A DNA stretch of 649 nt from assembly GCF_003334305.1 (NCBI RefSeq), contig NZ_QOWS01000072.1. One strand, given 5' to 3'. The notes beneath the pieces are model-generated. The model saw only the letters and a list, made by a program, of their open reading frames with translations, ran no database searches and was not told where the DNA came from. Numbering within the stretch: the stretch's first letter is position 1; each line of letters starts with the position of its first letter. The translations under genes were made by a program, and so were the position numbers. Shown here in pieces: positions 1-649 of the stretch. This DNA is from Escherichia coli (GTDB lineage Bacteria; Pseudomonadota; Gammaproteobacteria; Enterobacterales; Enterobacteriaceae).

Positions 1-2
1 TC

Positions 3-25
3 GGTAATGCTGCCAACTTACTGAT
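3..25 (+). repeat. IS1 left terminal inverted repeat (IRL), 23 bp
   Basis: GGTAATGCTGCCAACTTACTGAT; differs from the IRL of K-12-type IS1 as I recall it (GGTGATGCTGCCAACTTACTGAT) at one position (4th base G->A). The partner IRR is outside the window, so the inverted-repeat pairing cannot be shown here. Confidence 0.85.
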
Positions 26-40
26 TTAGTGTATGATGGT
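9..40 (+). promoter_or_regulatory. Probable insA promoter (pIRL) overlapping the IRL, which is also the InsA binding/autorepression region
   Basis: A -10-like hexamer TATGAT at 32..37 lies just upstream of the insA RBS and start; in IS1 the insA promoter is known to lie partly within IRL. The -35 element is not clearly identifiable by eye, so boundaries are approximate. Confidence 0.35.
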
Positions 41-46
41 GATTTT

Positions 47-52
47 AAGGTG
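47..52 (+). promoter_or_regulatory. Shine-Dalgarno sequence for insA
   Basis: AAGGTG at 47..52, 5 nt upstream of the GTG start codon at 58..60. Confidence 0.5.
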
Positions 53-57
53 CTTGC

Positions 58-333
58 GTGGCTTCCATTTCCATCAGATGTCCTTCCTGCTCCGCTACTG
101 AAGGCGTGGTGCGTAACGGCAAAAGCACTGCCGGACATCAGCGCTATCTCTGCTCTCATTGCCGTAAAACATGGCAACTACAGTTCACTTACACCGCCTC
201 TCAGCCCGGTAAGCACCAGAAAATCATTGATATGGCCATGAATGGCGTCGGATGTCGCGCCAGTGCACGCATTATGGGCGTTGGCCTCAACACGGTTTTA
301 CATCACTTAAAAAACTCAGGCCGCAGTCGGTAA
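58..333 (+). CDS. insA: IS1 InsA protein (91 aa): transposition inhibitor / transcriptional repressor and N-terminal DNA-binding part of the InsAB' transposase
   Basis: ORF 58..333 with GTG start and TAA stop at 331..333; translation [37 protein letters not shown]... carries a C-x2-C-x20-C-x2-C zinc-finger motif (C8, C11, C32, C35) and a C-terminal HTH-like segment ([30 protein letters not shown]). Near-identical to recalled InsA with about 7 substitutions (e.g. V4I, S7R, D15E, T52K). Confidence 0.93.
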
Positions 334-649
334 CCTCGCGCATACAACCGGGCAGTGATGTGATTGTCTGCGCTGAAATGGACGAACAGTGGGGCTACGT
401 CGGTGCTAAATCACGTCAGCGCTGGCTGTTTTACGCGTATGACAGGATACGGAGGACGGTTGTGGCGCACGTCTTCGGTGAACGCACTCTGGCCACACTG
501 GAGCGTCTTCTGAGCCTGCTGTCGGCCTTTGAGGTCGTGGTATAGATGACGGATGGCTGGCCGCTGTATGAATCACGCCTGAAGGGAAAGCTGCACGTTA
601 TCAGCAAGCGTTACACTCAGCGCATTGAGCGACATAATCTGAATCTGAG
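252..649 (+). pseudogene. insB: IS1 insB frame (transposase catalytic part), interrupted by an in-frame TAG at 543..545 and 3'-partial at the window edge
   Basis: ORF 252..545 ([64 protein letters not shown]...) matches recalled InsB ([27 protein letters not shown]...). It ends at TAG 543..545, where canonical IS1 has TGG (Trp) in the motif DVVIWMTDGW. The same frame then continues open over 546..647 as [34 protein letters not shown], matching canonical InsB. Classed as pseudogene only because of the internal stop; a sequencing error or suppression are alternatives. Confidence 0.7.
307..315 (+). promoter_or_regulatory. Programmed -1 ribosomal frameshift (slippery) site TTAAAAAAC linking insA to the insB frame
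   Basis: TTA-AAA-AAC in the insA frame (codons 307-309, 310-312, 313-315; A6 run 309..314 followed by C315) is the established IS1 A6C frameshift motif. The -1 frame reads CTT AAA AAA CTC (L K K L), which continues into the InsB-like frame. The insA stop (331..333) lies 16 nt downstream. Confidence 0.85.

Follow-up and report, generated by a model that had tools for sequence, protein, structure and literature searches.

The window analysed here, a 649-nt stretch of Escherichia coli DNA, begins only two bases ahead of the terminus of an IS1 element, and the question it raises is where this copy is inserted and how it came to be there. A preliminary description had placed the terminus at nt 3, with a single-base difference in the left inverted repeat (IRL), and had left the disrupted target, the 8-9 bp target-site duplication (TSD) and membership in a composite transposon to be settled from outside sequence. 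With high confidence, the explanation favoured here is that the window is the left 647 nt of a defective 768-bp IS1F whose insertion context is one or both of two sites in a single genomic island, that its TSD would have been lost through recombination, and that the window itself is likely a collapsed repeat. Searches covered complete E. coli genomes, plasmids and phages.

IS1 was present in 4,971 of 5,426 complete E. coli genomes by BLAST, and the best matches to the window were annotated as 'IS1-like element IS1F family transposase'. Window positions 3-649 align without gaps, from the first base, to the curated IS1F of K-12, with 2 differences in 647 nt (645/647, 99.7%). Against K-12 IS1A there are 64 differences over 647 nt (~90% identity), and of the 64 markers within the window that distinguish IS1F from IS1A, 63 show the IS1F-type base. 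The classical IS1 copy of phage P1 is also ~90% identical to the window. By its sequence, the element is the IS1F iso-form of IS1. Each defining feature of IS1 that can be examined is present except transposase integrity: a terminal inverted repeat of ~23 bp starting GGT(G/A)ATG, the right-hand partner of which (IRR) lies outside the window and is present at all matched loci; an IRL-to-IRR length of 768 bp, the IS1 length, at the exact-match loci (the window itself being too short to show it); and the IS1 layout of two ORFs, at 58-333 and 252-545, in frames offset by -1 with AAAAAAC at 309-315. The features of the window are as follows.

1..2, no strand: flanking 'TC', outside the element; at least two different insertion-site flanks end in these bases, ...GCTGCAAATC/ and ...GGGGATTTC/
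3..25, + strand: IS1 left terminal inverted repeat (IRL) of IS1F type, GGTAATGCTGCCAACTTACTGAT (consensus match, identity to K-12 IS1F, onset of conservation at nt 3)
3..649, + strand: left 647 nt of an IS1F-type IS1, IS positions 1-647 of 768 (alignment to curated features)
10..37, + strand: sigma-70 promoter-like site CTGCCA-16-TATGAT overlapping the IRL (consensus match only)
58..333, + strand: insA ORF, GTG start, 91 aa, zinc-finger and HTH repressor, intact (ORF and profile match)
309..315, + strand: intact A6C motif, AAAAAAC, at which a programmed -1 frameshift joins insA and insB' (sequence; motif named in PMC12428005)
312..649, + strand: insB' frame, offset by -1 from insA; it continues past the window end and contains an in-frame stop (ORF analysis)
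543..545, + strand: TAG nonsense codon in the insB' frame, with A at IS position 542 (alignment; RefSeq 'internal stop')

The window start reads tc/GGTAATGCTGCCAACTTACTGAT. Positions 3-25 (+ strand) match the 23-nt IS1A-type IRL consensus, GGTGATGCTGCCAACTTACTGAT, with one mismatch (22/23), the G>A at window nt 6, which is IS position 4. With up to 3 mismatches allowed, 0 of 200 dinucleotide-preserving shuffles gave a match to that consensus. The IRL of K-12 IS1F is identical to that of the window (23/23), so that the single difference from the K-12-type IRL reported in the preliminary description holds for IS1A-E and not for K-12's own IS1F; the G>A reads as the IS1F state of this position. 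A is likewise the base at the corresponding position of the canonical IRR, where ...GGAGTCATTACC gives GGTAATGACTCC as its reverse complement. IS1A-E have a common IRL and IRR, and the ends of IS1F are distinct and more alike each other (PMC12903888). The placing of the base change within known IS1 end variation is therefore borne out, both by the K-12 IS1F IRL and by that study. An IS1 copy at another locus (L023) starts GGTAATGG... and is bounded by a perfect 9-bp duplication; since this copy combines A at position 4 with a TSD, that base does not stand in the way of transposition.

In IS1 the zinc-finger/HTH protein InsA serves as a repressor of the promoter located in the IRL and binds at the terminal inverted repeats. 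The DDE transposase InsAB' is made when, on rare occasions, ribosomes slip by -1 at A6C; its substrates are IRL and IRR, and its action creates a target duplication of 8-9 bp. The promoter-like site at window 10-37 sits where the insA promoter of IS1 is presumably to be expected; sigma-70-like sites in the window numbered 2, versus 0.5 expected from shuffles. The second of these matches lies at window 610-638, inside insB'. A scan of the window for terminator-like sites found none, and no RNA family was matched in Rfam on either strand of the window at E<=1.

The three ORF pieces cover positions 1-81, 75-153 and 156-189 of the 199 positions of NCBIfam NF033558, in two frames offset by -1, and separately each scores below the cutoff of that profile. 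A conceptual InsAB' fusion, with the slip applied, the TAG masked as X and the C-terminus missing, scored 221.9 bits (curated cutoff 100) over profile positions 1-189 of 199. A G>A at window 302 (IS 300) gives R82H in InsA and InsAB'; the base is G in K-12 IS1F, IS1A and all other aligned copies. L81, the neighbour of R82, has been placed in the HTH DNA-binding motif of InsA (PMC12428005).

The transposase frame is interrupted, unlike that of an autonomous IS. The codon at window 543-545 is TAG in the window versus TGG in IS1A and in the intact IS1F-type copies (pB39_V, PPompW, p140_MLI109 and 2024CK-00184). The same TAG is found in K-12 IS1F, the insB7 of which is annotated as a pseudogene, and RefSeq labels the matching copies 'programmed frameshift; internal stop'. 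Because of the TAG in insB', the window copy cannot make its own transposase. IS1F is essentially immobile alone and mobile when InsAB' is supplied (PMC12428005, PMC12903888), and under such supply it is the non-consensus copy most often mobilised (PMC12903888). The window copy retains an intact IRL, insA and slip site, and its insB' stop is the TGG>TAG change of the IS1F lineage. By analogy it would be non-autonomous and movable only with InsAB' in trans, an analogy drawn from K-12 IS1F, in which trans-mobilisation was reported, to a copy that additionally has InsA R82H and, at the antiporter site described below, a T>C in the IRR (IS 765).

All 649 bases of the window were matched at 100% in seven E. 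coli chromosomes, all at one locus. The order at this locus is a basic-amino-acid/polyamine antiporter, an Orn/Lys/Arg decarboxylase, an antiporter, the IS1, a 5'-truncated IS600 and then a C4-dicarboxylate transporter. The junctions read ...GTATGCTGCAAATC/GGTAATG... on the left and ...GGAGTCATCACC/TACAACTGGGTACAGC... on the right. The left junction was found in 510 of the 5,426 E. coli genomes, and in five of five inspected IS1 begins at the same base; the right flanks in these five are of at least four kinds (IS600-delta, ykgR, a hypothetical gene and a MarR gene). The right junction was counted in 198 genomes, the full configuration in only 86. In 2024CK-00184 (L027) the same right junction, including the C at IRR position 765, occurs on an intact IS1F with the left flank of pB39_V. 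No empty target, lacking an IS, was seen on the antiporter side: of the 510 genomes that bear the flank 5 were inspected, and IS1 occupies the site in all of them.

The antiporter-side copy is an IS1F/IS1A mosaic. In the exact-match copy there are nine consecutive IS1A-type markers across IS 648-750 (L001 6650-6770); in ATCC 43896 the copy at this site is IS1F-type at markers through IS 636 and IS1A-type from IS 648 onward. The IRR of the antiporter-side copy has the T>C at IS 765. The copies at the same site in ECONIH1 and APEC E19019 switch between IS1F and IS1A between markers 157 and 178, and those in CFT073 and 300709 carry deletions. Homologous recombination or gene conversion among IS1 copies would be expected to give mosaics with such varied switch points.

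In the same genomes, ~20 kb from the exact-match copy, an inverted IS1F adjoins ykiE-fecI, with the flank ...GGGGATTTC/IRL. Agreement between the antiporter-side and fecI-side copies starts with the 2-nt 'TC' that precedes the IRL and lasts to IS 647, which is window 1-649; directly outside it they diverge, with T/A before nt 1 and A/G after nt 649. The window end, IS 647, is one base before the first IS1A-type marker (IS 648). In strain A7 each of the two copies equals the window at 649/649 positions; in ATCC 43896 and UMB200201_11, two of the three exact-match genomes inspected, the fecI-side copy differs at 2 positions. Since the limits of the window are the limits of identity between the two copies, the window is most likely a collapsed-repeat contig, that is, the maximal repeat common to both, and this origin is regarded as probable. 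It presupposes a source genome like that of A7 or an assembler that popped bubbles, and the identical copies of A7 could themselves be a polishing artefact of the A7 assembly. A collapsed repeat would give in-edges ...GGGGATT and ...GCTGCAAA and out-edges ACAACATCTGGC (IS1F-type) and GCAGCACCTGGC (IS1A-type). The 'TC' would then be the last 2 nt shared by chance between two flanks, and not the flank of one insertion. The insertion would lie at either or both of two sites that share a genomic island: site (a), downstream of the antiporter, Orn/Lys/Arg decarboxylase and antiporter genes with the right end abutting the 5'-truncated IS600, and site (b), adjoining ykiE-fecI.

The window may instead derive from the antiporter-side mosaic copy alone, its ends being arbitrary cut points. 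This is the less likely origin but one that retains some weight, as all seven exact full-length matches lie at the antiporter locus and all seven have the private A at window 302, which among the genomes checked the fecI-side copy has only in A7. However, both ends of the window fall at the exact limits of copy agreement, an unlikely double coincidence for an arbitrary cut, and the whole source record is 649 nt, which is typical of repeat contigs.

Additional observations concern the content of the island. The antiporter-decarboxylase-antiporter block (L004 13157-18674) has two paralogous antiporter genes flanking the decarboxylase gene and resembles an acid-resistance module; ~510 of 5,426 E. 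coli genomes carry it, and the plasmid search gave no match. Its other border is a diverged, frameshifted IS1-family element (L004 ~12197-12970, - strand) with the ends GGTGATGCCTCTAATTGG... and GGTAGTGCATCCAATTAG..., an arrangement kept in CFT073 and ECONIH1. Between fecE and the decarboxylase block lies a transposase gene of the IS3 family, interrupted by a group II intron that encodes an ltrA reverse transcriptase/maturase (L004 7740-11176).

The IRR consensus is absent from the window on scanning, and therefore a TSD is not assessable from the window alone; in this the preliminary description, which had found the window uninformative on insertion context, was right. The check that it had proposed, for a direct repeat of 8-9 bp flanking the two ends, was run on public genomes and came back negative at either exact-match site. 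At the antiporter site the left flank is CTGCAAATC versus TACAACTGG on the right, and at the fecI site GGGGATTTC is opposed to TCCTCCCGA (or to GACCATGTT in K-12). Detection of TSDs was confirmed in positive controls at other IS1 copies (GGCTATATGC, CTGCAATTC, CTATAAATC and GGGATTTC). A TSD is the mark of a simple insertion event and not of IS1 family membership.

A simple recent IS1 insertion, with an 8-9 bp TSD just outside the window, is the default expectation for IS1, and the other IS1 copies examined have perfect 8-10 bp duplications. It is nonetheless a very improbable account of this copy: both sites that match 649/649 are without a duplication; the partners that a duplication would require, IRR followed directly by CTGCAAATC or by GGGGATTTC, gave no perfect match among the 5,426 E. 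coli genomes; the copy is defective; and its junction is fixed across 86-510 genomes. Recombination or gene conversion between IS1 copies, in contrast, would leave no surviving target duplication. The separate junctions with other partners, together with the IS1A-like right 120 bp, point to the antiporter-side copy as a product of recombination and not a fresh insertion, a history that rests on shared junctions, no parental pair having been found within one genome.

Some candidates for the missing junctions were rejected. The best near-matches to the TSD partner (L022, L023 and L024) turned out to be simple insertions unrelated to it, each bounded by a TSD of its own, and the IS1A/IS3-delta junction of ECONIH1, considered as the parental right junction, differs in the sequence past IS1. 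As a side observation, a TSD was found in none of six IS1F-type copies at distinct sites (L003, L005, L009, L010, L013 and L027), a small and non-random sample; the IS1A-type and other copies examined (L003 7318, L022, L023 and L024), likewise few and non-randomly chosen, all have one. The lack of TSDs at IS1F-type copies fits the idea that these are old and have been reshuffled.

A second IS1 copy bracketing cargo genes had also been suggested as something to look for. Such a copy does exist, as the inverted IS1F ~20 kb away in the matched genomes, and the two copies bracket cargo in the manner of Tn9: fecIRABCDE, the IS3 with its group II intron, the diverged IS1-family element and the decarboxylase block. 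The duplication expected of composite transposition, however, is lacking, the outer ends of the IS1F pair reading TCGGGAGGA versus TACAACTGG. The window copy could be considered as an arm of a composite transposon in which the inverted IS1F pair moves, as a unit, ~20 kb made up of the fec operon and the decarboxylase/antiporter block. The two IS1F-type copies do flank fecIRABCDE and the decarboxylase block with their IRLs facing inward, and supplied InsAB' moves IS1F and mini-IS1 constructs in trans (PMC12903888). Against this stand, besides the unlike outer flanks, the stop in both transposase genes, an outer right flank that varies among genomes while the inner junction is constant, and a left (cargo) flank with no match in 72,556 plasmids; moreover, the 'IS1 family' element lying closer to the cargo is another member of the family, and a highly diverged one. 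That element, annotated 'IS1 family transposase' ~6 kb to the left, was considered as a second IS1F arm and rejected, being highly diverged and forming no long inverted repeat with IS1F. The composite transposon is accordingly held to be a highly doubtful reading, and there is no positive evidence that the ~20-kb unit moves. Equally little credence, for the two together, is given to the ideas that IS1F persists as an InsA-only 'repressor' damping host IS1, or that the 20-kb module, delimited by two transposase-dead IS1F copies whose ends and insA are intact, is moved or inverted in trans by InsAB' from co-resident IS1A-type copies.

The left boundary at nt 3 was examined with 13 IS1 copies having distinct left flanks, drawn from chromosomes, plasmids and one prophage. 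Upstream of the boundary the commonest-base fraction is at most 0.69 in every column. From IS position 1 on it is 1.0 except at positions 4 and 8; position 4 is polymorphic (A in 8 copies, G in 5) and at position 8 the fraction is 0.92. With conservation setting in at IS position 1 in all 13 copies, the boundary is real and IS1 homology does not extend upstream of it. Continuation of that homology past nt 3, under which the preliminary description would have regarded its own boundary as misplaced, was not seen across these differently flanked copies, and the terminus it had named is upheld by the consensus match, by the 13-copy conservation and by the starts of the curated features. That the boundary is misplaced and IS1 homology extends further upstream is extremely improbable, as the 'TC' at positions -2/-1 in 9 of the 13 sampled flanks is an ascertainment effect, the hits having been ranked or queried on those bases, whereas the curated K-12 IS1F and IS1A features both begin at the base aligned to window nt 3 and the perfect 8-10 bp TSDs of the control copies abut exactly the equivalent base.

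All of this has been described before, namely IS1F, its distinct ends, the insB stop, trans-mobilisation and the IS-mediated rearrangement of islands. Rearrangement of genomic islands by IS elements is textbook knowledge. The biological import of the present copy is small and the one useful addition is technical: for a 649-nt record that opens 2 nt ahead of an IS end and breaks off at the point of divergence between two copies, a collapsed repeat is the most likely origin. Since the window is probably such a repeat, its 2-nt 'flank' is not to be taken for a single insertion site.

The closest known system is the IS1F of K-12 MG1655 (insA7 and the insB7 pseudogene, adjoining fecI, a 'type IV' IS1), at 99.7% gap-free identity to the window. 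It has in common with the window the identical 23-bp IRL, the TAG stop in insB' and the A6C slip site, and its left flank, ...GGGGATTTC, is also that of the fecI-side candidate site. It differs from the window at two positions. At IS 156 (C in K-12, A in the window) the K-12 base is private, all other IS1F-type copies examined having A; at IS 300 (G in K-12, A in the window) the change is private to the window lineage and yields InsA R82H. The antiporter-side copy differs from it further in its IS1A-like right 120 bp and in the T>C at IS 765 of the IRR.

Canonical IS1 (K-12 IS1A/IS1E; phage P1, R100) resembles the window in its 768-bp architecture, in the layout of insA, A6C and insB', and in an IRL matching at 22/23. 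It differs by a nucleotide identity of only ~90%, by G versus A at IRL position 4, and by the nonsense codon of the window insB', with which the window copy would not be autonomous. The mobile IS1 copies of K-12 are IS1A/E (PMC12428005). Intact IS1F-type copies (on plasmid pB39_V, in prophage PPompW_EH2246 and on the 2024CK-00184 chromosome) have the IRL and the IS1F marker pattern of the window, and differ from it in having TGG at IS 541-543 versus TAG; those of pB39_V and 2024CK-00184 are annotated in RefSeq with uninterrupted transposases.
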